A DNA stretch of 64,000 nt from Candidatus Nezhaarchaeales archaeon (GCA_038853715.1 JAWCJE010000010.1:378-64377), one strand, 5' to 3'; positions 12,863 to 56,775 are shown, counted from the first letter of the stretch. The notes: generated from the sequence alone by a model not told the origin. Numbers and translations are program-made.

Positions 12863-14008
12863 GTGGCTAATGCTTTGCCTACGCGTCTTAACGTTGCGCG
12901 GGGGGTTATGGAGGAGTACGCCCGCTTAACGGGTTTACATCCTGAAGGGTGGCCGCGGCGATACTTATGGACGGATGCTTTCGCCGTGTTTAACTTTTTA
13001 GAGCTGTATAGGCTTACGGGTGGGGGGCTTTATAAGCAGCTTGCGATACGCTTAGTAGATCAGGTTCATCACGTTCTAGGTAGGCATCGCGGGGATGATG
13101 GGAGGAGCGGTTGGATTAGCGGGCTTAATGATTCTGAGGCTGAGGAGCATCCAACGGTTCGCGGTTTAAGGATAGGTAAGAAGCTACCTGAACGTAGGCT
13201 GGATGAGCCTTACGACCCGGTTTTAGAGTGGGAGCGCGATGGTCAATACTACCATTACCTTACGAAGTGGATGCTCGCCTTACGTAAGATGGCTAAAGCT
13301 ACTGGTAACGTTAAATACCTTAAGTGGTCTGTGGAATTGGCTAAAGCCGCCCATAAGGCTTTCATTCATACTTCGCCGCTTGATGGCCGTAAGTACATAT
13401 ACTGGAAGATGAGTATAGATCTATCCTATCCCCTTACGCTTCAGGAGGGGCAGCATGACGTAATTGACGGGCTGATAACTTACGCTGAGCTTCAAGTAGC
13501 TTCGCCTGAAGGAGTTCTAACGGAGGAGGTAAAGGAGGCTTTAAGCATGTGTAAGGAGCGGGATTGGAGTGAATGGGTTAGTGATGACCCCTTAGGCGTA
13601 GGCGAACTCCTAAGCCTTTCTTTTAGGGCTGCGAGGCTAACTTTTAAAGGGGCAAGCTACTTAGCTGGTTTACTACACTCTCTGCTTGAAGCAGCTTACG
13701 TTAGCCTTAAGGCCTACCTACCTAAAGACTTCCTCAACCTTCCGGCTAGCCGTAGGCTTGCATTTCGCGAACTCGGCCTTTCAATAGGTCTTCACGCGGC
13801 TGAAGAACTTAAAGCTCTAGCTGAAAAACTAGGTTTAACTTATCATCCATTAATTAAAAGCTTGGAAAAATTCATTCCGATGGGCTTAAAGATTAAGGAG
13901 TTTTGGACTAACCCGATTAACTGGGAGGTTGATAGCTGGATGGAGCATCGGGAAATCAACATGGTTATGTTAGCAACTAGCCTACTACCAGACGGATACC
14001 TCGATTAA
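12863..14008 (+). CDS. Hypothetical protein, possibly of an alpha/alpha-toroid (glycoside hydrolase/epimerase-like) fold
   Basis: It is 381 aa with protein-like composition and repeated aromatic-rich helical segments. I did not recognise a specific family. Confidence 0.45.
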   Translation: MANALPTRLNVARGVMEEYARLTGLHPEGWPRRYLWTDAFAVFNFLELYRLTGGGLYKQLAIRLVDQVHHVLGRHRGDDGRSGWISGLNDSEAEEHPTVRGLRIGKKLPERRLDEPYDPVLEWERDGQYYHYLTKWMLALRKMAKATGNVKYLKWSVELAKAAHKAFIHTSPLDGRKYIYWKMSIDLSYPLTLQEGQHDVIDGLITYAELQVASPEGVLTEEVKEALSMCKERDWSEWVSDDPLGVGELLSLSFRAARLTFKGASYLAGLLHSLLEAAYVSLKAYLPKDFLNLPASRRLAFRELGLSIGLHAAEELKALAEKLGLTYHPLIKSLEKFIPMGLKIKEFWTNPINWEVDSWMEHREINMVMLATSLLPDGYLD

Positions 14009-14849: not shown

Positions 14850-15188
14850 TTAAACGTTAATCGATACTACGTTCTTCGAGATTTTAACCTCCACTTCATC
14901 CCCTATCTCAGGTTTTTGTTCAAGCCTTTCCCATTCGTCCTCGGTTAACCATAAGGTTAAGCGTTGAAGGGTAACTTTACCGGGCCTTATGAAGGGTAAC
15001 GACTGCATTACCTGGTTTATTACCGGCATTACTTCACGAGCGAGCGGCGACGTACTTCCTTCAGGGGAGATAATTACGGGTGGAGGGGCTTCCTTCTCCT
15101 CGGTTAAGTCCAAGCGTACCCCCCTATTACCTAGGGGGTCGGTTACTAAGGATTTACCAACAACCGTCGCTTTAAAGGTAACGCCCAC
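14850..15188 (-). CDS. Hypothetical protein
   Basis: It is 112 aa with no recognised motif. Confidence 0.3.
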   Translation of the reverse strand: MGVTFKATVVGKSLVTDPLGNRGVRLDLTEEKEAPPPVIISPEGSTSPLAREVMPVINQVMQSLPFIRPGKVTLQRLTLWLTEDEWERLEQKPEIGDEVEVKISKNVVSINV

Positions 15189-15333: not shown

Positions 15334-16401
15334 ATGTATGCTTCCTCGGGGAGCGATGGAGCCCTTGCTAGGAAGAGCGCCGCGGTTAAATACGGCGTTG
15401 CCTCATGGCTTATAGTGATGCGTATGTTAAGGACGGCCGAGGACGTAATGGTTGCTGCTCAATTAGCTGCTACGTTAGAGGTTAGTGGATGGCCTAAGCC
15501 TGGAAATGTGCATAGGACTTCGAGCTATCCTGATAAGGGCTTTGAACACTTCTTGGCGGGTTCAATAGCTTTAGGCCCTGCTATTAAGCTTGCAGCGGTT
15601 CGAGGCGTGAAAGCTAGGTTAAAGGACGATTTCTCTAGGGTTCAGCTTGGAGCCCTAATTAAGAAGGCCTGTAAAGCCAGCCTTTCTTGGCAGCGGGCTG
15701 GTAATACGCATTTAGGGGTAGTTTTACTCTTCACGCCGATAGCCGTAGCTATTGGCTCACTACTTCCTTGGGAAGGCGGGGTTCAACGGTTAAGGGATAA
15801 CGCCATTAGAGTTATGAGGAGTACTACGCCTATCGATACGCTTCGCGTATATGAAGCCATTAGGCTGATGAAGCCTAGCGGGCTTGGAAGGGTGAAGGGT
15901 GAAGGTTTTGACGTATTTAGTGAAAGGAGCGAAGTCTTAAGGCGGGGTATAACCCTCTTCGACTCAATGAAGGTAGCGGCTAAATGGGATAGTGTAGCTA
16001 AGGAGTTAGCGGATGGGTTTACGGTTACGTTTACGGTGGGCTACCCTTACTTCATGAAGCTCTACGAGGAGACGTATGACGTAAACGTTGCGGTTGTCCA
16101 TACGTACCTTAAACTTCTCTCAACGTACCCCGATACGTTCATAGCTAGAAACGTGGGGCTTAAGATCACCGAGGACGCTGAGGAGGCCGTAAAGTTAGGG
16201 TTAGAGGAGGCTCGTAAGGTATCGATGAAGGCCGATGAGGTTTTAAGGCTCGGCGGGCTTCAAACGGCGGAAGGTAGGAAGATGCTTCTAAAGCTCGACG
16301 AGGAGCTTAAGAGCCTAGGCCAAGACTATAACCCGGGGGCAACGGCCGATTTAACGGCTTCTTCAATCTTCGTAGCCGTATTGGAGGGGTTTAGGCCTTG
16401 A
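15334..16401 (+). CDS. CitG/MdcB-family protein (ATP:dephospho-CoA triphosphoribosyl transferase-like)
   Basis: Its motifs (LEVSGWPKPGNVHRTSSYPD and others) match the triphosphoribosyl-dephospho-CoA synthase family. The 4-nt TTGA start-stop overlap couples it translationally to the next gene. Confidence 0.55.
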   Translation: MYASSGSDGALARKSAAVKYGVASWLIVMRMLRTAEDVMVAAQLAATLEVSGWPKPGNVHRTSSYPDKGFEHFLAGSIALGPAIKLAAVRGVKARLKDDFSRVQLGALIKKACKASLSWQRAGNTHLGVVLLFTPIAVAIGSLLPWEGGVQRLRDNAIRVMRSTTPIDTLRVYEAIRLMKPSGLGRVKGEGFDVFSERSEVLRRGITLFDSMKVAAKWDSVAKELADGFTVTFTVGYPYFMKLYEETYDVNVAVVHTYLKLLSTYPDTFIARNVGLKITEDAEEAVKLGLEEARKVSMKADEVLRLGGLQTAEGRKMLLKLDEELKSLGQDYNPGATADLTASSIFVAVLEGFRP

Positions 16402-17438
16402 GGAAGGTGGTTGCACCTATTGAAGGCTGGTACTTGGAAACTGTTGAGAAGCTAATCTTCACCGTTAAGGGGCATCTCCACCCCTACGGGCACCTTGTAG
16501 CATACGTTAGGTATGCCCCTCATCCTGAAGGTGATCGTGAAAGGGGCGGCGTAAGGTATAAGCGGTTATACCACCTTGATGAGCAGGAAAACTTCCTACT
16601 TGAGCATTACCCTCACTACTTGCTTTACGACGGGGTTATGGATGAATTATTACAGGCGGTCCCGATAAAGCGTATAGTGAAGCTTTACGATCCAACCGAG
16701 AAGCTTATCGAGCTACAGCGTAGCCGCGGCCTGTTAACACCAGTTGAACAGGATGCGTTAAGCTTCGCTGAGCTTCTAGCGAGTAGGGCTAAAGTACCCC
16801 TTGAATCGTTAGGGGTATCCGGCTCGATACTTGTAGGGCTACATAAACCTAGCTCAGATATAGACTTAGTGGTTTACGGCGTTAATAGTAGCCGCCTCGT
16901 ACATTCAGCTTTACTGAGTATGCTTAACGAGGATGATGAGGTGAAAAAACTCGACGTTGAAGGGTTTAGGAGGCTTTACGAGTTTAGGGTTAAAGATACT
17001 AGGATACCCTTCGAAACCTTCATAAGCCAGGAGTCGAGGAAGGTTATCCAAGGTAGGTTCCGTGGAAGGGAGTACTTCATTAGGTTCGTTAAGCTACGCC
17101 ACGAATTAACGGAGCTTTACGGGGATAGCTTCATTAAATGTTTGGGTAGGGCGACCATAAGGGCTAGGGTGGCTTCCGATGAAAATGCTATTTTTACGCC
17201 TTGCGTATACCAAATATTAAACGTGGAGTTCCTGGAAGGGGTTAAGGTGCCTAAACTAACCCAGGTATGCTCGTTTAGGGGGAGGTTTTGCGAGCAGGCT
17301 AAAGTCGGCGAGGAGGTAATAGCTAGCGGTAAGGTAGAGGAGGTTCAAAGGAAGGATGGAGAGGTCTACCATAGGCTTGTGGTGGGTGCAACCCCTAACG
17401 ACTACCTAATTTCATTAACGCCTACTGCCTCCATCTAG
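16398..17438 (+). CDS. Pol-beta-superfamily nucleotidyltransferase with N-terminal and C-terminal extra domains
   Basis: It has the GVSGSILVGLHKPSSDIDLVVYG motif, matching GS-x9-13-DxD, and is 346 aa. It is a paralog of the 18458-19516 gene. Confidence 0.5.
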   Translation: MRKVVAPIEGWYLETVEKLIFTVKGHLHPYGHLVAYVRYAPHPEGDRERGGVRYKRLYHLDEQENFLLEHYPHYLLYDGVMDELLQAVPIKRIVKLYDPTEKLIELQRSRGLLTPVEQDALSFAELLASRAKVPLESLGVSGSILVGLHKPSSDIDLVVYGVNSSRLVHSALLSMLNEDDEVKKLDVEGFRRLYEFRVKDTRIPFETFISQESRKVIQGRFRGREYFIRFVKLRHELTELYGDSFIKCLGRATIRARVASDENAIFTPCVYQILNVEFLEGVKVPKLTQVCSFRGRFCEQAKVGEEVIASGKVEEVQRKDGEVYHRLVVGATPNDYLISLTPTASI

Positions 17439-17644
17439 GGGAGGTGGAGAAGCTCTTACCTATGGTTTTAGCGGCTTCTACTAGAGGCTCGGATGGAAAC
17501 GTTGGTTTTAATCTAATCGATAGATCGCGTTTCACCCGAAGCTTCCGTGGAAACGGTATAGTGCTTGAAGGGACGGTGGCTACCACTATAGGGTATTCGA
17601 AGGACGGTCCGTACTAGGTTACAACGTACTCCTAGCTTGGAAGC

Positions 17645-18352
17645 CTAGCTATGCTTCGCCGGTTTAACTTCCTTTAATAGCCTTTTAAGGTAGCTTTCAA
17701 CCCTTTTCATCCTTCTACCTAGGAAGGATAGGTTTAATATATGGATGGCCTGCTTCCTTAAACTCGAGTAGCTACTAGCTCTCGTTAGGATGCCGCGATC
17801 CCTAAGGGAGGCTATTAGGCGTGTAAATTCGTCTATCGTTACGCCTAAGGTTTTAACTGCTACGTCTACGGCTGGCGATGAGGCTATGGCCTTTAAAACC
17901 TTAATATCACCCCTCGTTAACTTTAAGTCAGGTATAAGTAGGGCTGGTTCGTAGTCGTTTAGAGCGTCCTGAACGGCTTGACGGACGATGAGTTCAAGCT
18001 CCTCAGGCTCTAAAAGGATGTAGAAATCGGGAAGCTCCAATACTTTAACGCCAAGCTGTTTAGCGGTTAATTCAGCGGCTGTATCAGCGTAGCCTTTACA
18101 TATCACCATCGGCTTTAACCCCGAGATCTGCGCGTTAGTATACGCCTGCCTAACGTCGGATACGCCTATACGGCCTGCCTTTACCTCAACGGAGTAAACA
18201 TCGCCCTCCGGGCTTTTAGCCACTAGGTCGATCTCAGCGACTTCAACCCCGCCTATCTCGAGCCTCTTCCTAGATTCAAGTATTTGAAAACCCATGCGTT
18301 CAAGAATACCGCGCCCTATACGTTCGCTACTAGCACCTCTCTTCATTGACAA
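17645..18352 (-). CDS. Hjc-like PD-(D/E)xK nuclease domain fused to a C-terminal winged helix
   Basis: The N-terminus (SSERIGRGILERMGFQILESRK...AEIDLVA...SVEVKAGR) aligns with the catalytic E, D and ExK residues of the archaeal Holliday junction resolvase Hjc. The C-terminal roughly 90 aa are wHTH-like. Confidence 0.5.
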   Translation of the reverse strand: MSMKRGASSERIGRGILERMGFQILESRKRLEIGGVEVAEIDLVAKSPEGDVYSVEVKAGRIGVSDVRQAYTNAQISGLKPMVICKGYADTAAELTAKQLGVKVLELPDFYILLEPEELELIVRQAVQDALNDYEPALLIPDLKLTRGDIKVLKAIASSPAVDVAVKTLGVTIDEFTRLIASLRDRGILTRASSYSSLRKQAIHILNLSFLGRRMKRVESYLKRLLKEVKPAKHS

Positions 18353-18457
18353 CTTTTAACCCTACTACTTTAGTGCTTCCCCCTTAATAAAGGGTTAACC
18401 ATTAGCTGGAGGGTGCCTATTTAAGAAGAACCTTGTAGGTGTTACTTTGAGGGGTGC

Positions 18458-19516
18458 ATGATGCTTCGAGGGTTTAGGGATCGCGATCAGCTTTTAACTA
18501 GGGAGGGGCTTTTCTTCACGGTCGTTGGAAACCTACACCCTGAGGATCGGATTATAAGCTATTTGAAGTATATACCTAACCCCGGGGGTAAGTGGGGGCG
18601 TGGGAAATCTAGGTATGCGAGGATGCTTCAATACTACACGATTCCATCACTCCTAGACACCATAAGGTACCTTGAAGAAAAATATAGGCATTACGTATGG
18701 TTCTCCGAGGAGCTAGGCATTAAGATGTCAGCCGTGCCGAAGGAGTATGTTCAAAGGCATTATAAGCCTGAGGAGAAGCTTTCCGAGCTTCTAAATGCGC
18801 GGCGTAGGGATAGGCTTGAGGAGGCCGTAGTTAACTTAGTAGGCTTAATCTCCGATGAAAGCGGCGTAGCAACTACGGCCTTCGGGGTTACCGGCTCAAT
18901 ACTCGTCGGTATACATAACGTGAAGTTCTCCGATATCGATTTAACCGTTTACGGTGTTAGTAATAGCCTTAAGGTTAAGGAGGCTTTAACTAAAATCTAC
19001 GACGACTCCGAGAAACCGGTTAAAAGGCTACCGCCTGGAAAGCTACAATACCTATTGAATAGGAGGATGAGGCTTTACCACCTCTCTAGGGAGGATGCGG
19101 AATTAATCTGCCTTAGGAGGTGGAATAGGGGGGTGTTTGGTAGTATTGACTTCTCGATACACCCGGTAAAGCTAGAGGAGGAGGAAAAGCTTAGATTCGG
19201 GGATTATAGGTTTAAGCCTAAAGGTATTGTGACCGTTGAAGCTATCGTTACTGATACCTCTGAAGCCATGTTTATGCCTTGCACCTACCGTATTGAACCT
19301 ACGAGGGTATTGGAGGGTGAAGCCGGGCCGGACCTAACGACCGTAACATCCTTCGAGGGATTATACGCGGATATAGCTTTAGAGGGTGAAGCTATAAGGG
19401 TTAGGGGTAAGCTGGAGGCCGTTATCGATAGGAAGGGGCGGATAATGCACCATAGGGTTCTAGTAGGATCACCGGAGGCTGAAGGCTACGATTACATAGT
19501 GGTCGTAAAAAGCTAG
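18458..19516 (+). CDS. Pol-beta-superfamily nucleotidyltransferase, paralog of 16398-17438
   Basis: It has the GVTGSILVGIHNVKFSDIDLTVYG motif, and the same N-terminal FTVxGxLHP...YxPxPxG and EKLxEL motifs as its paralog. Confidence 0.5.
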   Translation: MMLRGFRDRDQLLTREGLFFTVVGNLHPEDRIISYLKYIPNPGGKWGRGKSRYARMLQYYTIPSLLDTIRYLEEKYRHYVWFSEELGIKMSAVPKEYVQRHYKPEEKLSELLNARRRDRLEEAVVNLVGLISDESGVATTAFGVTGSILVGIHNVKFSDIDLTVYGVSNSLKVKEALTKIYDDSEKPVKRLPPGKLQYLLNRRMRLYHLSREDAELICLRRWNRGVFGSIDFSIHPVKLEEEEKLRFGDYRFKPKGIVTVEAIVTDTSEAMFMPCTYRIEPTRVLEGEAGPDLTTVTSFEGLYADIALEGEAIRVRGKLEAVIDRKGRIMHHRVLVGSPEAEGYDYIVVVKS

Positions 19517-19856: not shown

Positions 19857-20579
19857 CTAGGGTTGATAACGCTTCTTATGCTTATTGTATTCGTATAATC
19901 CCTTAAATTGTATTATTAACTCGTGTTCATGGACCTCGCCGGGGAGGAAGAATATCGGGAAGGCTATGTCGGAGAAGCAGCATGGAAGTAGTACGGCTAG
20001 GAAGACGATTAATATGAGGCCTAGTAGGTATTGAATGATTGACGTGGGGCCGAAGGCGATGAAGTAGAGCGATGACGCTGCCGATGAAATAAGGACGTGT
20101 GCGGAATGAGGGATAAGGCTTGGATGAAGCATAACCCGTACTAGAAGTATACCTATAAGTGTACCTAGGGCGGCTGGGATTAAAACGAGGTGCGGATGGA
20201 CTAGAAGGCATATATGTAGCTCTAGTTCCTTCACGCCGAGGATGAGCCCACCTATATAGGGTATGATGATGTCTGATAACGAGCAAGGCGCGATAGACCC
20301 TATAATACCTACTGGTAACGTTGCGATAAACCGTTTACTATGCTTATAGTAGACGGCGGCCGTAGTAATAGCGCTTAGAAGCATGTGTAGAGGATGCGTT
20401 ATATGAAAGAATTCGTCGGCGAAGGCCTCGAGGCCTCCATTGGTAAAGGCTGCCGTTAAAGCTACGGTAAGCCCTATACCTACTAACACGCCAAGCATGG
20501 TAAACGGGGAATGGTAAAGGAGTTCGAAAAGTAGATGTCTTAATGCTTTTTGCAACGCGGTCACCACGTTTATGGGCAA
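19857..20579 (-). CDS. His-rich polytopic membrane protein, putative metal (Ni/Co) transporter
   Basis: It has 6-7 TM helices with conserved intramembrane His residues (FFHITHPLHML, HPHLV, HPSLIPHSAHV) and is divergent from nikR. Confidence 0.4.
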   Translation of the reverse strand: MPINVVTALQKALRHLLFELLYHSPFTMLGVLVGIGLTVALTAAFTNGGLEAFADEFFHITHPLHMLLSAITTAAVYYKHSKRFIATLPVGIIGSIAPCSLSDIIIPYIGGLILGVKELELHICLLVHPHLVLIPAALGTLIGILLVRVMLHPSLIPHSAHVLISSAASSLYFIAFGPTSIIQYLLGLILIVFLAVLLPCCFSDIAFPIFFLPGEVHEHELIIQFKGLYEYNKHKKRYQP

Positions 20580-20735: not shown

Positions 20736-21128
20736 ATGATAGTTAGCTTAGCTATTCCAAACGAGCTTTTAAAGGAGGTTGACCAAGTAGTAAAGCTTGG
20801 AGAATACGCGAGTAGATCGGAGATTATACGCGCCTCCTTAAGGGAGTTTCTATCAAGGCATAGGTGGCTATCAGGCCTTGAAGGATGTTTCTTAGCCACC
20901 ATAATGTTTACGTACCTTAAAGGGAGGATCGACTTGGAGAAGTTAACCGACCTTAAACACGAGTTTGATGATGTAATAGCTACCGAGATGCATACACACC
21001 TAGAGAAGGAAAATTGCCTCGAGGTCCTCGTAATTAAGGGTGATGCCTCACGGATTAAGAAGTTAAAGTCCCAGCTTTCAGCGATAAAAGGTATTAGGCA
21101 CGTCGAGCTTATCTCGATAGCTATTTAA
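20736..21128 (+). CDS. nikR: Nickel-responsive regulator NikR
   Basis: It has an N-terminal ribbon-helix-helix (ELLKEVDQVVKLGEYASRSEIIRASLREFL) and a C-terminal ACT-like domain with an H-x-H...C metal site (TEMHTHLEKENCLEV). It is 130 aa. Confidence 0.7.
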   Translation: MIVSLAIPNELLKEVDQVVKLGEYASRSEIIRASLREFLSRHRWLSGLEGCFLATIMFTYLKGRIDLEKLTDLKHEFDDVIATEMHTHLEKENCLEVLVIKGDASRIKKLKSQLSAIKGIRHVELISIAI

Positions 21129-21574: not shown

Positions 21575-23098
21575 TTGGAGGCTAAGCTTGAAGCTGTAAA
21601 CGTTTTAAAGTATACTAAAAGCTTATGCCCTGAATGTCTACGGGTTCTTGAAGCGGTAATTTACGAGCGGAACGGGGTTGTTTACATCTCTAAGCGCTGC
21701 CCTACCCATGGAGAGTATGAAGACGTTTACTGGGGTGACTATCAGTTATGGCTACGCGCCCTTAAGTTTGAGCACGTGGGTGATGGGCTTGCTAACCCGC
21801 GGACGAAGCGTAAGGAGGGTTGTCCCTACGATTGCGGTATATGTAATGAGCATAAGTCTTTCACGGTGCTAGCCATAGTTGACGTGACGAACCGCTGCAA
21901 CCTCACATGCCCAGTCTGCTTCGCCCATGCTGGAGCCGCTGGCTACGTTTATGAGCCGAGTACCGAGGAGGTGAAACGTATACTTGATAACTTCCGCGCT
22001 AATGAGCCTGCTAAGCCGCCAGGGCTTCAATTCTCGGGCGGTGAACCTACCCTACGTGAAGATCTACCTGAGCTTATCGAATATGCTGATAAGATCGGTT
22101 TCCACCATATAGAGGTTAATACTAACGGTATACGTATAGCTGAAAGCCTTGAATATACTAAGCAGCTGGTTGACGCTGGGGCTAACGCGATATACTTACA
22201 GTTCGACGGGTTAACCGATGATGTATACGTTAAGACGCGGGGCCTACCAATGTTAAAGCATAAGATGAAGGCGATAGAGAATTGCCGTAAACTCGGTTTT
22301 GACGCCGTGGTTTTAGTACCGACCGTAATACGCGGCGTTAACGATCATGAGGTCGCCGACATCGTTAAGTTCGCAGCTAGGAACTCCGATGTAATTCGAT
22401 GTGTAAACTTTCAACCCGTTAGCTTATGTGGACGTATCGATAGGGCTAGGCTAAAGGAGATGAGGATAACGATACCCGACGTAATTAGACAGGTAGAGAA
22501 AGGTACTGAAGGAGAGGTGGCTATTGAGGATTGGTACCCTGTACCCTTCGTAGTGCCGATACCCCGCGCGATAGGTTCCCTTAAAAACCATAGGTATGGA
22601 GCTGAGTTTACGGCTCACCCGCACTGCGGAATGGCTACCTACGTCTTCGTGGAGGACGGCAAGATTGTTCCAATAACTAGGAAGGCTAACGTTGAAAAGT
22701 TCATGGAGGTAATGGAGGGGGTCTATAAGCTGGCTAAAGAGGGGCATAAAACGAGGGCTAAAATGAAGCTACTAACCGCTTTACGCTACGTTAAAGGCGA
22801 CCTACTACGGAAGTTATTATGGCCGATACTTAAGACCGGTACGTATGAGGCGCTTCGCGATCTACACTTCAAGATGGTGATGATAGGCATGATGCACTTC
22901 ATGGACCTATACAACTTCGACCTAGAAAGGCTTCAACGCTGCGTTATTCACTACGGTATACCCGACGGACGTATCATCCCATTCTGCTCAATGAATAGCG
23001 TACACCGCCAAGAGGTTGAAAAACGGTTCGCCATTACCTGGGACGAGTTTAAACGGCGCATGGATGAAGCTAGAAGACGCGGCCTTAAACATTACTAG
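21575..23098 (+). CDS. Radical SAM protein with a rubredoxin-like N-terminal Cys4 motif, a possible tetraether lipid synthase (Tes/GDGT-MAS-like)
   Basis: It has the CxxxCxxC motif (VTNRCNLTCPVCFA), an N-terminal CPECL...CPTHG motif and additional C-terminal Cys clusters (HPHCG, HYGIPDGRIIPFC). The 507-aa size matches Tes. Confidence 0.5.
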   Translation: MEAKLEAVNVLKYTKSLCPECLRVLEAVIYERNGVVYISKRCPTHGEYEDVYWGDYQLWLRALKFEHVGDGLANPRTKRKEGCPYDCGICNEHKSFTVLAIVDVTNRCNLTCPVCFAHAGAAGYVYEPSTEEVKRILDNFRANEPAKPPGLQFSGGEPTLREDLPELIEYADKIGFHHIEVNTNGIRIAESLEYTKQLVDAGANAIYLQFDGLTDDVYVKTRGLPMLKHKMKAIENCRKLGFDAVVLVPTVIRGVNDHEVADIVKFAARNSDVIRCVNFQPVSLCGRIDRARLKEMRITIPDVIRQVEKGTEGEVAIEDWYPVPFVVPIPRAIGSLKNHRYGAEFTAHPHCGMATYVFVEDGKIVPITRKANVEKFMEVMEGVYKLAKEGHKTRAKMKLLTALRYVKGDLLRKLLWPILKTGTYEALRDLHFKMVMIGMMHFMDLYNFDLERLQRCVIHYGIPDGRIIPFCSMNSVHRQEVEKRFAITWDEFKRRMDEARRRGLKHY

Positions 23099-37720: not shown

Positions 37721-38599
37721 TTAACGCTTTACCTTAGATATTACGTAGTTTATGATTGCGTCGGCTATGTTTATTGAAGTTACTGATTGTAAACCATGCC
37801 ATCCCGGTTGACTGTTGATCTCAACCACGTAGAAGCCGTTCTTACTTTCTAGAATATCGACCCCCGCTATTTCACACCCTAATAGTTTAGCCGATTTAAT
37901 TGCTAATTCCATTGCTTCACCGGTTAGATTTAAGGGTATGGGTTTAGCTCCTTGAGCTACGTTGGTCTTCCAGCTTTGAGCTACCCGGTACATTGCTGCT
38001 ACTACGCCATCACCGACTACGAAGGCTCTAATGTCCTTGACGCCGTGAGGAATGAACTCCTGTACGTAGATAACGTTACGCGTAAAGGCTAACGCCCTGA
38101 AGACCCTTGAAGCTGTCTCCCTATCAGTAAGCCTGGTAACTCCTAAACCTCGAGCTCCGAACATCGGTTTACATACTACGTCGCCGCCGAGCTCATCGAA
38201 GGCTTCAAGGGCTGAGGCCGGGCTCTCAGTTACGATAGTGCGTGGAACCGGTATTCCATGCTCGTTGAGAAGGGATATAGCGTAGTACTTATCCATGCTT
38301 CGCTCTATGGCTGAGGGGTTATTAATAATCGTTAAGCCAAGCCTATGTAGTTTATGTAGAACGTCGATCCTAAATACGCATTCATCAATAGATCCTCTAC
38401 CTATAGGTCTAACTATTAACGCGGAGAGGTCTACGGCTAGGTTAAGCCCTAATGCCGTTACTGGCTTCTGTAGGTTCACCCTAGCCGTTAAATCGTTAAA
38501 CCTGAAGAAGAATGGTTCAACCCCGAGCTTAATACAAGATGCTTTAAGCTGTTGGGGGGCCCAGGCGTTAGCATTACGGGTTAAAATACCAATCCTCAA
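37721..38599 (-). CDS. RimK-family ATP-grasp ligase (LysX/ArgX/MptN/CofF-like)
   Basis: It has ATP-grasp motifs and a RimK-type N-terminus (MRIGILTRN...) and C-terminus (EINSQPGW), and is 292 aa. Confidence 0.7.
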   Translation of the reverse strand: MRIGILTRNANAWAPQQLKASCIKLGVEPFFFRFNDLTARVNLQKPVTALGLNLAVDLSALIVRPIGRGSIDECVFRIDVLHKLHRLGLTIINNPSAIERSMDKYYAISLLNEHGIPVPRTIVTESPASALEAFDELGGDVVCKPMFGARGLGVTRLTDRETASRVFRALAFTRNVIYVQEFIPHGVKDIRAFVVGDGVVAAMYRVAQSWKTNVAQGAKPIPLNLTGEAMELAIKSAKLLGCEIAGVDILESKNGFYVVEINSQPGWHGLQSVTSINIADAIINYVISKVKR

Positions 38600-39071
38600 C
38601 CTAACCCTTCCTCGATGAAGTAAGAAAACGGCTTAAGATAAGCTTACCTCTAAGGTTGATTAGATGATGTATGGAAGCGGTGTACGATTAACAAAACGCG
38701 TAAACTTGTTCCCCATCGCCTTCACCGTTAGCTTTAGGGAGACGCCGATTATCATATTGAAGGCCATGTATAGTAAACGTAATCTAAAGGGACCCTATTA
38801 CGCTCAAATAAACCAAGCTCACAAATCAACCTCCTAACACTAAACATGAAACAGTGCATGGAGGAGGAGACTTAAATACCTTAAGTTGCCAGGTCCGAGG
38901 CGGTTAAGGAGGCGGTTAAAATGGCTAAGGCATCCATTAAGCTAGCAGAGAAGGTTAAACTATCTGAGGAGGAAACGGTAAGGGCTAAGTGGGCTGTAAC
39001 TGAGAGGAAAGACCGTGTAATCACGTGCCCATATCCAAGAGTTCGGATAACGGTAAGGGGTGCGTTAAACG

Positions 39072-40357
39072 ATGTTTTTAATCGGTAGCTCGTACGGTAC
39101 TTTAGTAGGGTTAGCGAATCTTTCTTTCTTGATTATGGCATTGGTTATTAAGAGTCGAGTGCCACGTATCCCGGCATGGAGCGTGATGTCGTTCACGGCG
39201 TTTACTACGGTCGTTTTTAACATCGTTAGCTTTGACGATCTTGGAACCGTTATAGATATGGAGGTAATAATATTCCTAATCGGTATGTTCAGTATGGTTG
39301 GACTTGCTGAATCCTCCGGGTTACTTAACGCTATCGCGGCGTGGTTTGTAAGCAAATTTAAGCGTAGAAAATCTTTAATCTTCGGGTCATCAGTGCTGTT
39401 TGGCTTGCTGGCGGCTATAGCCGTTAATGATACCATAGCGTTAATGGGCCCGCCGATAATCTACACGATCTCCAAAGCGGCTAGAGTAAGGCCTAAAATG
39501 ATGTTCCTCCTACTAGCTTTCTCAATAACTATAGGCTCAGCCATGACCCCCATAGGGAACCCCAAAACGTTTTAATAGCTATTAAATCCGGTATGGAGGC
39601 TCCATTCATAACCTTCATCCATAAGCTTGTCATACCGACGCTGTTGAACCTCCTCATAACGCCGTACCTCCTTATGAAGATGTTTAAGGTTAAGGAAGGT
39701 GAGGCAAAACTACTCTTAATCCCCCACGAAGCTCTACGGAATCGTAAGGATGCTACGTTAGCAATTATTGGGTTAACCTCATCCATAGCGATACTCATCG
39801 CGAACGATATACTTGAACTTCTACATATGCCGCACGTGACTAAGAGGGGGTTCATACCGTTTATCGTGGCGGCTGGGATTTACCTTTTTTCGAGTGACCC
39901 GAGGAAACTTATATCGAACGTTGATTGGGGTACAATAGTTTTCTTCATCTCCATGTTTATAACTATGGAAGGTGTATGGAGAAGCGGGATCTTAACACCA
40001 TTACTTATGGCGTTATCAAGCTCCAAAGGTAGTGGGATTATGGATGCCCTTACCATATCGTTCGTATCGATAACGCTAAGCCAATTGATGAGTAACGTCC
40101 CCTTCGTTAAGCTCTTTACGAGGTATATGGAGGACTTAGGCTATGGAGCTGGAGACGTTAATGCATGGCTTACTCTAGCCGCAGCGTCGACGATCGCCGG
40201 TAACCTAACCATCCTAGGTGCAGCATCAAACATAATCATACTCGAGTACTTAGAATCAAAAATGAAGGTGACGATAGGGTTCGGTGAATTCCTAAAGTAC
40301 GGCTCCTTGGTGACGATTATAAATATTGCCGTATATTTACCGTTCCTCATTGCTTAA
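39072..40357 (+). pseudogene. ArsB/NhaD/CitMHS-superfamily permease interrupted by a frameshift (39072-39575 and 39593-40357)
   Basis: The two adjacent ORFs (167 + 254 aa) together match the size of an ArsB/NhaD permease. The first ORF ends in IGNPKTF*. Adding one A to the CCCCAAAACG run would give GNPKNVLIAIKSGMEAPFITF, which restores a GNPxNxLIA motif. The ORFs are in different frames, mod 3 = 0 and 2. Confidence 0.5.
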
Positions 40358-40647: not shown

Positions 40648-41604
40648 TTAGAGCTCTAGGGATCTCCTTAAGGCCTCCTGATTAATCTTACCATTGGTGA
40701 AGCTTTTGCCGGTGGTTTTACAGGTGACGGTTATCTTCCCGATGGTGAAGAAGGAGTTATCTAGCTTCGACCAGTCGAAGTTAACCGCTTTTAAAGCTTC
40801 GTATGATAGTTTACCGTAATCAGCCCAGGCGGTAGCGGGGGCTTTACTAAGCATTTCCTTCAATAGTGCTTCCTCCTCATCTATTAGGTAGCTTGCTACT
40901 CCTCCGTAGAGTAAGGCATCCTCCTGCTTAGCTGTTGAAACACCTACATCGGGGTGGGGCGGCATTATGGGCGCGCAACCACTAGCGAAAACAACATTCT
41001 TCGGGTCAAGCCCTAGGAACTCTAACCTGTAGAGGCCTGTTTCAGCTACTCTCCCTGATACTTGGACCGAGCCGGCCATGGATGCCGTGGTGGTTAAAAG
41101 TATGTAAAGGTTTTTAGGGTCTACCTTACAGTCCGTAGCTACTCGTTGAGCTACTTCATCGGTAGGTTTCCTCGTGGTTTCCATCACTATTACTGCTTCG
41201 TTATACTCATCTTTGTAGCCGACCTTCTCAAGAACCTTCTTCGGCTTAAGCGCTAAGGCTCTAGCAGGCCCTGAAGAGGGAGCGAAGAAGTCCCCTACCT
41301 TCACCATCCAACCGGCTAATTGACAGCCTAATAGCGAGATTGCTGGATGATCTGTTGCAACCACGATGCTCGGCATTTCGAGGTCTCCGTAGGACTTATA
41401 CGTTAACCAGCATTGAGCTAATCCTCCTAGACAGACTTCTGTTAGCTTTAACCCCGCTAGGTAGCCGCCAGCTGCTTCTAGGCCCGTATCTATAACTGTT
41501 GCTCCGCAGGGTAGCTTCTCAACCTTCACCCTATACTCTTCAGGGTGGTTTAAGAGTTCGTTTACAACCCTCATGGCTAACCTATTAACGCTTATCCCCG
41601 GCAT
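40648..41604 (-). CDS. mch: Methenyl-tetrahydromethanopterin cyclohydrolase
   Basis: The N-terminus SVNRLAMRVVNELLNHPEEYRVKVEKLPCGATVIDTGLEAAGGYLAGLKLTEVCLGGLA matches the Mch family. It is 318 aa. Confidence 0.8.
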   Translation of the reverse strand: MPGISVNRLAMRVVNELLNHPEEYRVKVEKLPCGATVIDTGLEAAGGYLAGLKLTEVCLGGLAQCWLTYKSYGDLEMPSIVVATDHPAISLLGCQLAGWMVKVGDFFAPSSGPARALALKPKKVLEKVGYKDEYNEAVIVMETTRKPTDEVAQRVATDCKVDPKNLYILLTTTASMAGSVQVSGRVAETGLYRLEFLGLDPKNVVFASGCAPIMPPHPDVGVSTAKQEDALLYGGVASYLIDEEEALLKEMLSKAPATAWADYGKLSYEALKAVNFDWSKLDNSFFTIGKITVTCKTTGKSFTNGKINQEALRRSLEL

Positions 41605-41706: not shown

Positions 41707-42558
41707 TTGAACCGTCCTTCTCTAACTCGTGGCGAGGCTCATTTACGCTACCACTTAATAAGCTTATACGCTATTAAACTGTTAAGAGGCTGGTTTAACG
41801 TGAGCGTTAAGGTCGAGATTTACGGTATAAAGGTTAATGGTGAAGTGAAGGAGGGGGAGGATCTCGCGCGCTTAATTGTTGAGGAGGCGGAGCGTCAAGC
41901 TAACGGGTTACTCGATGGCGACGTGGTAGTTGTAACCTCGAAGATAGTGGCTAAAGCTGAAGGTAGGCTGGTAAACCTGAAAAGGGTCCGTCCATCGGCC
42001 TTCGCTAAAAACCTAGCTAGGTATACTGGTAAACCGGCTACGCTTATCGAAGTCATTCTTAGGGAGTCGAGGTCTATAACAAGGGTTAGGAGGGGTACGA
42101 TAATAGTTGAAACGAAGCATGGGTTTATCTGTGCGAACGCTGGTGTGGATAGGTCAAACGTGAAGCCGGGCTTCCTAACGCTACTACCTAAGGATCCTGA
42201 TAGGTCGGCCCAGATGCTGAAAAGTAGGATTAAGGAGTTAACGGGTAGAGACGTAGCCGTGATAATATCGGATACTCAAGGAAGGCCCTTCCGAGAGGGG
42301 CAGGTGGACGCTTCCATAGGTCTAGCCGGGCTTGAACCTATTAACGATTTAAGGGGGCTTGAAGACCTTTACGGGTATAGGTTAAGGGTTAAACGTATAG
42401 CGATTGCTGACGAACTAGCCGCTGCAGCCGAATTAGTTATAGGGCAAGCTAGTGAAGGTATACCGATAGCCGTAATTAGAGGCGTAAAGTATCGTAGCTC
42501 TGAAAAGGCTACGGTTAAAAGGCTACTCCGCCCAAAGAGAAGAAGCCTCTTCTTGTAG
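41707..42558 (+). CDS. cofE: Coenzyme F420-0:L-glutamate ligase
   Basis: It has CofE motifs VVTSKIVAKAEGR...ETKHGFICANAGVDRSNV...SDTQGRPFREGQVD. Confidence 0.7.
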   Translation: MNRPSLTRGEAHLRYHLISLYAIKLLRGWFNVSVKVEIYGIKVNGEVKEGEDLARLIVEEAERQANGLLDGDVVVVTSKIVAKAEGRLVNLKRVRPSAFAKNLARYTGKPATLIEVILRESRSITRVRRGTIIVETKHGFICANAGVDRSNVKPGFLTLLPKDPDRSAQMLKSRIKELTGRDVAVIISDTQGRPFREGQVDASIGLAGLEPINDLRGLEDLYGYRLRVKRIAIADELAAAAELVIGQASEGIPIAVIRGVKYRSSEKATVKRLLRPKRRSLFL

Positions 42559-45947: not shown

Positions 45948-46799
45948 ATGAAAGGTCTCCGCCTTAAAAGGGTAAGGACGCCCTTCTGGCTTCCGAGGGT
46001 TAATTTAAAGCATGAAATCCTTAAGTCATTAGATGGCGTTGTTCGTCCGGGTCACGTGGTGGTATTATCGGAGAAGGCTCTCTCGGTGGCCCTAGGTTTA
46101 ATAGTGGATGAGGGCTTGGTTCGTCCAAGTTTAGCGTCGAAGGTATTCACGTTCCTATGGATGCGTCTAGTATGGGGCTACCTTTTAGGGCCTTTATGCG
46201 GCCTTAAACGCTCAACGCTAAACGCGCTTAGGAAGTATCCGATTAGGGAGGGCGCGGCTCATAAACAGTTGGTGTTAAGGGTTGCGGGAATCATGCAGGC
46301 CTTTAAACCCTTTTCGGAGGGTGGTATTGACGGTAGCAACCTTCCATATAGGTATGTTAGCTTACCATTACCTAACCCGCAGGAGCTAGCGGAAGAGGTT
46401 AAGGGGTGGGTGAAGGCTGGGTTAGGTGTTGATGTATCTGTGGCGATAGTTGATAGTGATAGGACCTACGTGTTTAAAGGTACGCCTTTAAGGTTTTCAG
46501 CTAGGAAGACCTACGTTAAGGGGTTGGTGTCATTAGGCTTTCTAGCCTATATCGCTGGCCGCTTATTAAGGAGGTGGGTTAAACCCTTTGCAACGCCTCT
46601 TGCGCTAGCTGGTTTAAAGCTACCAATTGATACGTTATTACTAATAGCGGAGGCCGCGGATAGGTTAAGGGGTTATGGTGCTGGTCGAAACGTGTTTGAA
46701 ATGGCGGAACGCTTTAAAACTTCGATAAACGGGGTAACGTGGAGTATGATTAGAAGCGTAAAACATTACCCAATTATACTAGTTGAAACTTTAAAATGA
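45948..46799 (+). CDS. CofE-like (F420-0:gamma-glutamyl ligase family) divergent paralog
   Basis: It has GGIDGSNLPY...VDSD motifs reminiscent of the CofE GxDxSN motifs but is otherwise divergent. It is 283 aa. Confidence 0.35.
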   Translation: MKGLRLKRVRTPFWLPRVNLKHEILKSLDGVVRPGHVVVLSEKALSVALGLIVDEGLVRPSLASKVFTFLWMRLVWGYLLGPLCGLKRSTLNALRKYPIREGAAHKQLVLRVAGIMQAFKPFSEGGIDGSNLPYRYVSLPLPNPQELAEEVKGWVKAGLGVDVSVAIVDSDRTYVFKGTPLRFSARKTYVKGLVSLGFLAYIAGRLLRRWVKPFATPLALAGLKLPIDTLLLIAEAADRLRGYGAGRNVFEMAERFKTSINGVTWSMIRSVKHYPIILVETLK

Positions 46800-46811: not shown

Positions 46812-47741
46812 TTACTTGTAGAACTTCCTCGCCGCTTCAATAGCTTCCTTATTGAATACCTTAAAGGGCCCCAGTTTCCCTCCGAAGTTTACGGCTGTAA
46901 TCTTTTTAACGCCCGATACCTTAGCGGCGGCTAGTATCCCTACTCCTTGCGCTATTTTAACGCTTTCGGCGTTCAACCCGTTAATGACGATTTCAAGTAC
47001 GCTTTTAACTTCTAAGGGGACCTTGGATTCCGATACCTTATCCTTTATGGTTGGGCAGAAGAGATGGTTTGTACTGGCTGGAAGCTTAGGATACTTTAAC
47101 GAGCCGACCTTCGAGCCGCTTCTAACTATGCCTCCTGGGAAGGGCATAATTACGTTTCTACAGGTCTTCCTGATGGCTTCGACGGCGGCCATAGCCCCCT
47201 TTAACGCTGAATCCTCGCTATCACCCATAACTATAATGTTTCCTCCAGCTACACCCTTCACTACGCCTAAGGTGTCTTCAACTAGGAACCATCCCTGCAT
47301 AACCGGTATCCTATACATGGTCCTTCCGTACACCTTTTCAACGGCCTCGAAGCCGTCGCCGAACTTACCTACGGCGCTACCTATATGCATCTTCCTCTTG
47401 GCTTGAGGTATACCGTCGAACGCGGCCGTGGTTGGACACGTTAAAATGCATTGCCCCAGCCTTGCCAACACTTGGAACTTTAACTCGGGTACTGTGTTAT
47501 GGTATATGTGGATTAAGGCGCCCGGCCTACCATCAGGTGTTTCCTCGGGGCTTAATAGCCTTTCAACACCTGCTTCAGCCGGAGACATTATTATAGAGCT
47601 GGCGAAGCCGGTGGCTACTTGAGCCGCTGTTGTAGCCCAGTATTCATCACGCGCGGTAATCAGTATGCGCGTGCCAACCATTGGAAACGCTTCAGCAAAT
47701 GTATCCTCAACTTCAACTCCGTCCACGGTAAATGAGGACAT
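46812..47741 (-). CDS. ftr: Formylmethanofuran:tetrahydromethanopterin formyltransferase
   Basis: The N-terminus VDGVEVEDTFAEAFPMVGTRILITARDEYWATTAAQVATGFASSIIMSPAEAG matches Ftr. It is 309 aa. Confidence 0.8.
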   Translation of the reverse strand: MSSFTVDGVEVEDTFAEAFPMVGTRILITARDEYWATTAAQVATGFASSIIMSPAEAGVERLLSPEETPDGRPGALIHIYHNTVPELKFQVLARLGQCILTCPTTAAFDGIPQAKRKMHIGSAVGKFGDGFEAVEKVYGRTMYRIPVMQGWFLVEDTLGVVKGVAGGNIIVMGDSEDSALKGAMAAVEAIRKTCRNVIMPFPGGIVRSGSKVGSLKYPKLPASTNHLFCPTIKDKVSESKVPLEVKSVLEIVINGLNAESVKIAQGVGILAAAKVSGVKKITAVNFGGKLGPFKVFNKEAIEAARKFYK

Positions 47742-51572: not shown

Positions 51573-52433
51573 ATGGCGAGCGGAAAGCCGCCAGTAGTAA
51601 AGGTAGGCATTCTAAAGCTCGGCTGCGTTGGTACAGCGCCTCTTCTCGAGTACCTCCTTGATGAGAGGGCTGACCGAGAGGATATAGATGTTAGAGTGGT
51701 TTCGTCGGGCGCTAAGATGGATCCTGATAAGGCGGAGGAGGTAGCGCGGAAGCTCATCGAGTTTAAGCCGCATTTCGCCGCTGTTGTAAGCCCTAACGCT
51801 GCTCTACCAGGACCTACGAAGGCGCGTGAGATCCTTTTAGAGGCCGGCTTACCGGTTATAGTGATCTCCGACGCGCCAGCTAAGAAGGCTATTCAAAGCT
51901 TAGAGGCTAAGGGCTTTGGCTACATCGTAGTTGAGGGCGACGCAATGATAGGGGCTAGAAGGGAGTTCTTAGACCCCGTCGAAATGGCCTGCTTTAACGC
52001 TAACATAATAAAGGTGTTAGCGATAACAGGTGCTTACAACGTTATAGTTGAACAACTTGATAAGGTTATCGAGGACTTAAAGGAGGGAAGGAAGCCGGAG
52101 CTACCGAAGGTCGTAGTTGATAAGGAGGTAGCTTTAAAGGCGGCTGGCTTTAATAACCCGTACGCTAAAGCTAAGGCCATGGCCGCCTACGAAACAGCTA
52201 GGAAGGTAGCAGATCTAACCGTTGAGGGGTGCTTCAAGGTTCAAGAGTGGGAGAGGTACGTACCACTAGTAGCTGCGGCGCATGAGATGATGGAAGTAGC
52301 AGCTAAACTGGCTGATGAGGCAAGGGAGCTTGAAAAACCAGCCGATACTTTATCGCGTAGGCCTCATGCTCGCGACGGCACGTTAATGTCGAAGCTAAAA
52401 CTCATCGAGAAGCCGGTTAAGATTAAAAAGTAG
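51573..52433 (+). CDS. mtd: F420-dependent methylene-tetrahydromethanopterin dehydrogenase
   Basis: VKVGILKLGCVGTAPLLEYLLDERADREDIDVRVVSSGAKMDP...MIGARREFLDP...NPYAKAKAMAAYE matches Mtd nearly motif for motif. Confidence 0.8.
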   Translation: MASGKPPVVKVGILKLGCVGTAPLLEYLLDERADREDIDVRVVSSGAKMDPDKAEEVARKLIEFKPHFAAVVSPNAALPGPTKAREILLEAGLPVIVISDAPAKKAIQSLEAKGFGYIVVEGDAMIGARREFLDPVEMACFNANIIKVLAITGAYNVIVEQLDKVIEDLKEGRKPELPKVVVDKEVALKAAGFNNPYAKAKAMAAYETARKVADLTVEGCFKVQEWERYVPLVAAAHEMMEVAAKLADEARELEKPADTLSRRPHARDGTLMSKLKLIEKPVKIKK

Positions 52434-54187: not shown

Positions 54188-54189
54188 AC

Positions 54190-55902: not shown

Positions 55903-55914
55903 GAGGCGATAAAT

Positions 55915-56775
55915 TTGGCTAAGCTTAACGAGATGGTATTAACCCCTAAGTACGAGTTTAAGGTACCGGTGGAAGCTAAATGTATATCGCCGGACGTTTT
56001 CGCAGGTAAAAGCTTAAGTGATATACGCGCACTACCGGTTTACGAAGGTAATACGAAGAGGGCTTTGATCGACCTTTTCAACATTGAAGGTAATCCTGGG
56101 GCTACTAGTGCTGAAACGGCTATAGTAATTCGAGGAGACGCGTGGAAGGTTAGACGTATAGGGGAGGGTATGAGTAACGGTAAGATAATCGTAGAGGGAC
56201 GTGTAGGAGCATATCTAGGGTTAAAGATGAAGGGTGGAACCATAACCGTTAAAGGCGACGCCGAATCATGGCTAGGCGCTAAGATGAAGGGTGGAACCAT
56301 AGAAGTATTCGGGAACGCGGGCGACTGTGTTGGAGGCGCTTTTAGGGGTGAAGGACCTGGTAGGGGGATGAGCGGAGGAACCATAATAATTCACGGTAAC
56401 GTGGGGGCTGAAGCTGGACGCGGTATGGGGGGCGGCACCATAGTTGTAGATGGTAACGCTGCTTTCCTACCTGGAGTGGATATGGTTGGAGGGGCTGTAG
56501 GGATTAAGGGGGACTGTCAAGGTAAAGCTGGAGCCAGGATGAGGGGGGGACGCGTAGTTATAGGCGGCTTCCTACCATCAGTACTGCCGAGCTTCTACGT
56601 GGATGAAGTAAGGGAATCGATAAAGGTTGGCCCTGAAAAAATGGCTGGACCATTCTACGTCTTCGTCGGCGACGTCTTGGCCGACGTAAAGTGTCGAGGA
56701 AGGCTATTCGTATCTGTAGCTAGAAACCAGCACCTAAAACGGTACGAGGAACTACTAACTACTCCAACGCTTTAA
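55915..56775 (+). CDS. fwdC: Formylmethanofuran dehydrogenase subunit C
   Basis: It has repeated GGTI(x)V(x)GnaG beta-helix motifs typical of FwdC and of the glutamate synthase C-terminal domain. Confidence 0.75.
   Translation: MAKLNEMVLTPKYEFKVPVEAKCISPDVFAGKSLSDIRALPVYEGNTKRALIDLFNIEGNPGATSAETAIVIRGDAWKVRRIGEGMSNGKIIVEGRVGAYLGLKMKGGTITVKGDAESWLGAKMKGGTIEVFGNAGDCVGGAFRGEGPGRGMSGGTIIIHGNVGAEAGRGMGGGTIVVDGNAAFLPGVDMVGGAVGIKGDCQGKAGARMRGGRVVIGGFLPSVLPSFYVDEVRESIKVGPEKMAGPFYVFVGDVLADVKCRGRLFVSVARNQHLKRYEELLTTPTL

Follow-up and report, generated by a model that had tools for sequence, protein, structure and literature searches.

A conserved CitG-like/nucleotidyltransferase gene module in Candidatus Nezhaarchaeales and distant lineages, with a probable role in methanopterin-type cofactor biosynthesis

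Tetrahydromethanopterin (H4MPT) carries an alpha-ribofuranosyl 5-phosphate on the 5-hydroxyl of its ribitol moiety, joined through a diester to hydroxyglutarate. We analysed a 64,000-nt stretch of DNA from a Candidatus Nezhaarchaeales archaeon (GCA_038853715.1, JAWCJE010000010.1:378-64377), referred to here in its entirety as the window, in which a homolog of the triphosphoribosyl transferase CitG is encoded together with two paralogous nucleotidyltransferases (NTases), designated NT-A and NT-B; the module under study occupies positions 15334-19516, and a nuclease-like gene lies between the two NTase genes. The module arrangement recurs in dozens of distant genomes, far beyond chance. We regard it as very probable that the CitG-like protein, NT-A and NT-B belong to methanopterin-type cofactor biosynthesis, because of their conserved operon membership across phyla, the fusion of an NTase to HPPK, and the coupling to CitG. 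That the module builds the distal side chain of tetrahydromethanopterin-type one-carbon (C1) cofactors is a narrower proposition, for which we consider the chances evenly balanced. An original prediction, made from the nucleotide sequence, had described this gene arrangement and linked it to H4MPT; as an observation it is confirmed as a whole, and its interpretation is supported in part.

The CitG-like protein matches the CitG profile (PF01874) over its full length (profile positions 3-284 of 284; E=2e-68, 231.5 bits against a cutoff of 27), which confirms its assignment to the CitG/MdcB family. Aligned with E. coli CitG along its entire length it shows 22% identity, and it shares with that protein an N-terminal PKPG.V.R, a central NTH.G and a C-terminal PG.[ST]ADL motif; its nearest solved relative is an Archaeoglobus CitG homolog (PDB 3h9p, E=7e-22). 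Public records contain an identical protein from a metagenome-assembled genome of Candidatus Nezhaarchaeales. Scores against the NCBIfam CitG/MdcB equivalog models are 42.7-58.9 bits, far under the cutoffs of 272-282, and the protein belongs to a subfamily distinct from genuine CitG/MdcB and linked to H4MPT genes instead of citrate lyase or malonate decarboxylase. The reported absence of citrate lyase and malonate decarboxylase genes from the window was upheld: tblastn with E. coli CitC, CitD, CitE, CitF and CitX found no citrate lyase gene there, and a Pfam scan of approximately 45 open reading frames (ORFs) of the window found neither malonate decarboxylase nor acyl carrier protein (ACP) domains. 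Citrate lyase and malonate decarboxylase (mdc) families were likewise not found among the conserved neighbours of the NTase loci described below. Archaeal proteins of this kind (P0121 and others) bear the public name ‘triphosphoribosyl-dephospho-CoA synthase’, carried over at family level. This annotation, widespread in archaeal genomes, is probably wrong as to substrate, since the window holds no citrate lyase or malonate decarboxylase.

All four ORFs of the module were found where they had been predicted, and the 4-nt overlap between the CitG-like gene and NT-A is real: the TGA stop codon of the former and the TTG start codon of the latter lie within the TTGA at 16398-16401. An alternative GTG start for NT-A at 16407, 9 nt downstream of the TTG, would leave a gap of 5 nt to the CitG-like gene; with either start, translational coupling of NT-A to CitG is implied. 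The base composition of the module region is not atypical for the window.

The alignment of NT-A with NT-B spans 338 residues and runs the full length of both (33% identity, E=1e-48), as expected of the paralogs they had been taken for, and both carry the predicted N-terminal FTVxGxLHP motif (FTVKGHLHP and FTVVGNLHP, respectively). The core GS...SDIDL motif is also present in both; the spacing of ten residues that had been given for it holds for NT-B, whereas NT-A has nine. The AlphaFold2 (AF2) model of NT-A (mean predicted local distance difference test, pLDDT, 93.7) opens with a beta-rich domain at the N-terminus, followed by the pol-beta NTase core and, at the C-terminus, an oligonucleotide/oligosaccharide-binding (OB) fold, and NT-B has the same architecture with the catalytic motif intact. 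NT-A scores just over the Pfam threshold for the pol-beta NTase model (PF01909) and NT-B under it, no further Pfam or NCBIfam family being matched by either; both belong in the pol-beta superfamily by their hG[GS] and DxD motifs and by the fold of the core. G142-S143 and S153-D154-x-D156 are invariant across 85 NT-A orthologs, 68 members of the NT-B group show no departure from GS and SDxD, and every sequence of either group retains G-S and S-D-x-D. Invariant in NT-A only are a series of basic residues (K24, R38, R47, R197, K215, R229, R294, R296 and R326) and the motif SFRGRFCEQA. NT-A is the more conserved paralog; the NT-B group has diverged further and is expanded in some lineages.

The two paralogs represent two ancient orthologous groups. 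In reciprocal BLAST with two unrelated loci, one on a 208-kb archaeal contig (L002) and one from an Anaerolineales bacterium (L003), the downstream NTase genes proved to be NT-B orthologs and the upstream genes NT-A orthologs; the NT-B orthologs of these loci and of Vulcanisaeta are 41-49% identical to NT-B and ∼30-34% identical to NT-A. The A/B duplication and the cluster are common to Thermoproteota, Asgard archaea, Chloroflexota and Acidobacteriota. Among 1.84 billion representative proteins the family accounts for 1,573 clusters with E<=1e-3, of which 523 reach E<=1e-30; its members, where named, go by ‘hypothetical protein’ or ‘predicted nucleotidyltransferase’. A search of PDB sequences with the NT profile gave no match, and the PDB contains no full-length structural relative of the three-domain architecture. 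By these comparisons the NT family is genuine, moderately sized and uncharacterised. Profile searches, which had been proposed as a check, gave the NTases no toxin-antitoxin, tRNA-modification or defence assignment.

A genome scan with one genome per species yielded 523 confirmed NTase matches. The best 80 of these come mostly from Bathyarchaeia, but also from Nezhaarchaeales, Methanomethylicia, Baldrarchaeota, Odinarchaeota and Promethearchaeota, and, among bacteria, from Anaerolineae, other Chloroflexota and Acidobacteriota; further family members occur in Korarchaeota, Wukongarchaeota and the cultured crenarchaeon Vulcanisaeta sp. JCM 14467. For comparison of gene neighbourhoods, ORFs were called and clustered, and recurrent families labelled with Pfam, at 85 loci including the window, which together hold 164 NT family members. 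CitG is present in 47 of the 85. Of the 57 loci with at least 3 kb available on both sides of NT-A, 41 have NT-B and 33 have CitG within 3 kb of it, 38 contain one or more H4MPT-related families, and only four loci lack NT-B, CitG and H4MPT families altogether. The gap between CitG and NT-A, where these are co-directional neighbours, falls between -47 and +21 nt in every case (20/20), and is -4 nt in four loci.

Recurrent neighbours include genes of methanopterin biosynthesis and C1 metabolism. The Bathyarchaeia string reads MptE-like < DUF447 > CitG > NT-A > NT-B, and in Chloroflexota (L067, L069, L077) the order is NT-A > AfpA-type flavoprotein > DUF6513/Pterin_bind (MptH-like) > NT-B > DUF447 > GHMP kinase (MptG-like). 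Anaerolineae carry fwd-ftr-fwdC-mch-RimK-CitG-NT-A-NT-B, followed by DUF1464, a flavoprotein, PTPS, and HPPK with GCHY-1 (MptA). The Vulcanisaeta string begins DUF1464-MptA-MptE-ftr-fwdDB-fwdA-fwdC-mch, with RimK on the opposite strand, and continues with an NT-B-type gene overlapping CitG, then ATP-grasp, MfnB, AA kinase, hydantoinase A, Fae and SHMT. FwdABCD, Mer and Mpt_N are additional Pfam-identified neighbour families at the NTase loci. Two bacterial proteins of ∼505 aa, P0115 (L001:8001-9521) and P0251, are fusions of a folK-type HPPK (PF01288) with NT-A. Such conserved clustering with H4MPT biosynthesis genes in distant lineages is the operational hallmark of methanopterin biosynthesis genes. 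Clustering in many lineages and the HPPK fusion, together with a gene for a radical-SAM (S-adenosylmethionine) enzyme of the HMPTM family in the window, thus bear out the predicted link to H4MPT; the likeness of the NTases to CitX that was part of it did not extend to detectable homology. The neighbourhood of P0115 in L001 is otherwise unrelated to C1 metabolism.

A ∼260-aa membrane protein resembling the S component of energy-coupling factor (ECF) transporters (PF07155/PF12822) is encoded directly upstream of NT-A in 33 of the 85 loci (within L002-L084), often between divergent CitG and NT-A genes (e.g. L035:1068-1853), and is absent from the window. Its position hints that a cofactor precursor is taken up or salvaged in connection with the module.

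A CitG homolog is also found among the H4MPT genes of methylotrophic bacteria, in a cluster with the order mch-orf5(RimK)-orf7(CitG)-fae (PMC3615186); in Methylomonas DH-1 the genes are mch, a glutamate ligase, ‘triphosphoribosyl-dephospho-CoA synthase’ and fae (PMC11533326). No NTase is listed for this cluster in the gene tables published for methylotrophs (PMC3615186; PMC11533326). Methylotrophs make dephospho-H4MPT, without the phosphate and hydroxyglutarate, and the RimK-like orf5 beside orf7 is a methylofuran enzyme (PMC8141765). Anaerolineae display the same mch-RimK-CitG synteny, with NT-A and NT-B added. The module thereby offers an explanation of why methylotrophs, which keep CitG and have no NTase in the published lists, make the dephospho cofactor.

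CitG forms an alpha-(1''->2') ribosyl 5''-triphosphate from ATP, with release of adenine, and in the canonical reaction of pol-beta NTases a hydroxyl attacks the alpha-phosphate of a ribose 5'-triphosphate. Combining the two gives a specific route to the H4MPT side chain, which we put forward tentatively, somewhat short of an even chance, its substrates and reactions being modelled on these precedents. The CitG-like enzyme would take ATP as ribosyl donor, release adenine, and place a 5-triphospho-alpha-D-ribosyl group on the 5-hydroxyl of the 1-(4-aminophenyl)-1-deoxyribitol part of the pterin-arylamine intermediate, by the same chemistry as CitG on dephospho-CoA, yielding the alpha-glycosidic bond of H4MPT. 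NT-A would then use the ribose 5-triphosphate as a nucleotide-like donor: the 2-hydroxyl of (S)-2-hydroxyglutarate would attack the alpha-phosphate, pyrophosphate (PPi) would leave and the phosphodiester of H4MPT would form, in a step equivalent to the CitX/MdcG reaction with the serine of an ACP. NT-B may be a partner of NT-A or may serve a different acceptor. This two-step chemistry is favoured because CitG chemistry matches the alpha-ribosyl group of H4MPT, because pol-beta NTases and CitX/MdcG alike catalyse attack of a hydroxyl on an alpha-phosphate with loss of PPi, and because methylotrophs combine a retained mch-RimK-CitG cluster, no listed NTase, and a cofactor lacking phosphate and hydroxyglutarate. 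A more speculative extension, which we think doubtful, is that each NT paralog attaches a different head group, hydroxyglutarate or some other alcohol, to the CitG-made triphosphoribosyl intermediate, giving a set of differently tailed methanopterins in TACK and Asgard archaea and in some Chloroflexota and Acidobacteriota.

Several observations weigh against this route. Comparison of the NT profile with E. coli CitX by hhalign gave a probability of 0.2%, neither NT-A nor NT-B matches the Pfam CitX (PF03802) or MdcG (PF10620) models at E<=0.1, and the C-terminal OB fold of NT-A resembles nucleic-acid-binding OB folds. White reportedly found in cell extracts that phosphoribosyl pyrophosphate (PRPP) is the ribosyl donor and that ATP is needed for the hydroxyglutarate step. 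A single phosphodiester step, moreover, leaves two to four catalytically intact paralogs unexplained. Full-length NTase copies number one in 31 of the 85 loci (many of these being short contigs), two in 39, three in 13 and four in two; three or four stand in tandem in some Bathyarchaeia (L055:10001-13123, L061:9989-13099, L028:9017-13243, L031:891-5694), with 25-30% mutual identity and GS...SD[IL]D intact in all. Since copy numbers of one, three and four also occur, formation of a heterodimer was rejected as a sufficient account of the paralog pair.

The distribution in Euryarchaeota points the same way: euryarchaeal methanogens are absent from the NTase matches listed, and no NTase was found within 8 kb of CitG in the three euryarchaeal loci examined. 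Since euryarchaeal methanogens and Archaeoglobi make the hydroxyglutarate-containing cofactor, either their NTase is located elsewhere or has diverged, or another enzyme carries out the step. In Archaeoglobus and a metagenome-assembled genome of Methermicoccaceae, the CitG homolog is directly followed by DUF447, adjacent or overlapping (L087:8001-9464, L088:8001-9502, L089:448-1847). Because these pairs stand without a nearby NTase and DUF447 also precedes CitG in Bathyarchaeia, CitG and DUF447 look like a broader core, a seemingly universal pair; DUF447 may supply the reductase, or may act beside CitG at this stage of the pathway in some other capacity.

The gene between NT-A and NT-B had been described as a fusion of an Hjc-type PD-(D/E)xK nuclease domain to a winged helix. 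Its N-terminal domain, encoded on the minus strand, is indeed of the PD-(D/E)xK type, with a readable E10, D42, E56-x-K58 motif and a weak Pfam signature: UPF0102/YraN scores 24 bits, where 23.6 are required, Mrr_cat stays under its cutoff, and the Pfam Hjc model itself is not matched. In a single-sequence AF2 model this domain reaches a pLDDT of ∼80, and the top Foldseek matches are archaeal Hjc structures (2wcw, 1gef; probability 1.0, E ∼3e-3). The winged helix, for which there were only sub-threshold winged helix-turn-helix (wHTH) matches, is unconfirmed because the C-terminal half is poorly modelled (pLDDT <50). Homologs of the gene occur in four of the 85 loci (the window, L005, L018 and L070), all from lineages near the window, and it is probably a lineage-specific insertion rather than a part of the module.

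Among the alternatives, the one of appreciable weight, although distinctly doubtful, keeps the module in the same pathway and assigns it a CofC-like chemistry: as conventional NTP-using nucleotidyltransferases, NT-A and NT-B would transfer AMP or GMP to a phosphate monoester, which could be 2-phospho-hydroxyglutarate or the ribosyl-5-phosphate intermediate, and the diester would form with release of the nucleoside monophosphate, possibly with one paralog for each half-reaction. Its weight derives from the points, given above, that count against the specific mechanism. Two catalytically intact paralogs fit a two-step activation and transfer, the ATP requirement of the hydroxyglutarate step and a monophosphate intermediate, both reportedly found by White in extracts, agree with it, the genomic context suits it equally well, and dephospho-H4MPT would be its natural intermediate (PMC8141765). 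It does not account, however, for the translational coupling of the NTase to CitG in particular; pol-beta NTases normally attack an alpha-phosphate and do not transfer a phospho-alcohol from a nucleoside diphosphate-activated donor, and no CofD-like transferase is found among the conserved neighbours. It is unlikely that the module serves another C1 cofactor, such as methanofuran/methylofuran or F420. The clusters do also hold fwd, MfnB (4HFCP_synth), ATP-grasp ligases and CofE, and the methylotroph orf5 beside orf7 acts in methylofuran synthesis (PMC8141765); yet the established structures of methanofuran and methylofuran contain neither ribose nor a phosphodiester, the phospholactyl linkage of F420 is already served by CofC and CofD, and the tightest neighbours are pterin/arylamine enzymes (MptE, MptH-like, MptG-like, DUF447, the HPPK fusion).

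More improbable again is an RNA- or tRNA-directed function of NT-A and NT-B, as an OB fold joined to a poly(A)-polymerase-like core might suggest, which would make their co-location with C1 genes incidental or regulatory. We consider it very improbable that the genes form a genuine CitG/holo-ACP synthase system, making 2'-(5''-phosphoribosyl)-3'-dephospho-CoA for an unrecognised acyl-carrier enzyme: CitG family membership, the adjoining NTase and the public annotation would agree with this, but neither the window nor the conserved neighbours contain citD/E/F/C/X or mdc, the equivalog scores are far too low, and the NTases are unrelated to CitX. Least probable of all is a nucleotide-signalling, defence or minimal-NTase toxin-antitoxin module with the Hjc-like nuclease as effector, the first of which the original prediction had offered as its alternative. 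The nuclease gene does lie between both NTases in the window, and distant fold matches of the NT-A model include DncV and CdnE. A role for the nuclease as effector is nonetheless rejected because the gene is present in only 4 of the 85 loci, a distribution that already effectively refutes this explanation; none of the four proteins gave a match of meaningful E-value to the PADLOC defence models. Minimal NTase/HEPN systems pair an NTase of ∼100-150 aa with a HEPN partner, whereas NT-A and NT-B are proteins of ∼350 aa with three domains, no HEPN gene adjoining them was found among the window ORFs by Pfam, and the base composition is ordinary.

The C1 genes that had been adduced as context for the module (mch, mtd, ftr, fwd and the RimK-like ligase) were all located in the window by sequence search (Table 1). 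The ORF at 41707-42558 was rejected as mtd and is CofE, the real mtd lying further downstream. The HMPTM radical-SAM gene is situated 2 kb 3' of NT-B, after a gene for a NikR-type regulator (20736-21128), and L005 and L018 have the same synteny.

Table 1. Module genes and other features identified in the 64,000-nt window.
Feature	Position	Strand	Evidence
Arcadin-1	14850-15188	divergent to CitG	PF18653, E=2e-34
CitG-like triphosphoribosyl transferase homolog, 355 aa	15334-16401	+	Pfam PF01874
NT-A, pol-beta nucleotidyltransferase, 346 aa	16398-17438	+	PF01909, AF2 model, orthologs
Hjc-like PD-(D/E)xK nuclease domain and C-terminal helical region (wHTH possible)	17645-18352	-	
NT-B, paralog of NT-A, 352 aa	18458-19516	+	33% identity to NT-A
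Radical-SAM enzyme with HMPTM zinc ribbon (methanopterin pterin C-methylase family)	21575-23098	+	PF23545, E=1.6e-20; PF04055, E=1.2e-28
RimK/MptN-like ATP-grasp ligase	37721-38599	-	tblastn with RimK family of related loci, 47%, E=1e-81
mch, methenyl-H4MPT cyclohydrolase	40648-41604	-	46%, E=1e-97 to MCH family (PF02289)
CofE (F420_ligase)	41707-42558		strong match, E=1e-76
ftr, formylmethanofuran:H4MPT formyltransferase	46812-47741	-	63%, E=2e-117
mtd, F420-dependent methylene-H4MPT dehydrogenase	51573-52433	+	PF01993, E=7.6e-124
fwdDB (fused), fwdA, fwdC, formylmethanofuran dehydrogenase subunits	52442-56775	+	E from 2e-37 down to 0

A second gene of the F420_ligase family (45948-46799), which adjoins ftr, has a weak partial match (E=4e-8) and may encode a CofE-like protein that has diverged and acts in another role. 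The genes for arcadin-1 and RpoK lie just upstream of CitG; arcadins belong to the crenactin cytoskeleton system, and the presence of one agrees with a host from Thermoproteota. Flanking the module are a 381-aa soluble ORF (12863-14008) and a 240-aa polytopic membrane ORF (19857-20579), neither with a Pfam match, the latter not belonging to the ECF-S-like family of the other loci. The 254-aa ORF at 39593-40357 matches only the C-terminal half of the citrate-transporter family CitMHS (profile positions 166-336), with short overlapping ORFs just upstream of it (39065-39575); the transporter gene may be truncated or split.

An inventory from 2011 put the number of unknown methanopterin proteins at about seven (PMC3087415). 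Methylotroph genetics had already linked a CitG homolog to H4MPT genes, with no reaction assigned; in the open literature we found only gene-table mentions, and no mechanistic connection between the CitG homolog and methanopterin. We found no earlier description of the NT-A/NT-B family, of its architecture or of its position in the cluster. For the late steps of methanopterin synthesis, the addition of the alpha-ribosyl phosphate and of hydroxyglutarate, the module provides three candidate genes and a chemically explicit hypothesis, so that steps long missing from a cofactor pathway central to archaea become directly testable. For Bathyarchaeia, Asgard archaea and bacterial lineages, where C1 metabolism is at present deduced from genomes only, the NT family could also mark a complete methanopterin pathway. 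If the NT paralogs do attach different head groups to a CitG-made intermediate, as in the more speculative extension, this would be the first instance of CitG/CitX-type logic in small-molecule cofactor biosynthesis, and a route distinct from that of euryarchaeal methanogens.

The closest parallels are the CitG+CitX and MdcB+MdcG pairs, in which, as in the module, a CitG-family gene lies next to or overlaps a transferase gene (by 26 nt for E. coli citX and citG, by 4 nt here). The proposed logic is identical, a ribosyl 5-triphosphate being made from ATP before a hydroxyl displaces PPi, but the acceptors would be a cofactor intermediate and hydroxyglutarate instead of dephospho-CoA and the serine of an ACP, the window module comes without ACP, citrate lyase or mdc genes, and its NTases are of a different family from CitX, so that their likeness to CitX would be one of function and not of family membership. 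Methylotroph orf7 resembles the window gene as a CitG homolog linked to H4MPT C1-transfer genes, beside mch and a RimK-like ligase (PMC3615186, PMC11533326), and differs in that NT-A and NT-B are missing from the published lists and the cofactor has no phosphate or hydroxyglutarate (PMC8141765). The Archaeoglobus protein of PDB 3h9p, a structural-genomics structure, is of the same CitG subfamily and likewise from an H4MPT-using archaeon; unlike the window gene, its gene is paired with DUF447 and has no adjoining NTase. CofC and CofD of F420 synthesis achieve what is proposed for the module, a nucleotidyltransferase-dependent phosphodiester link from a 2-hydroxy acid to the core of a cofactor, although they belong to other folds and families, CofC activates phospholactate with GTP, and there is no CitG-type step. 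With the pol-beta NTases at large (PF01909; poly(A) polymerases, GLD2, CD-NTases), NT-A and NT-B share the GS...DxD motif and the core fold, from which they are set apart by the combination of a beta-rich N-terminal domain, core and OB fold, for which no dedicated Pfam or NCBIfam model exists.

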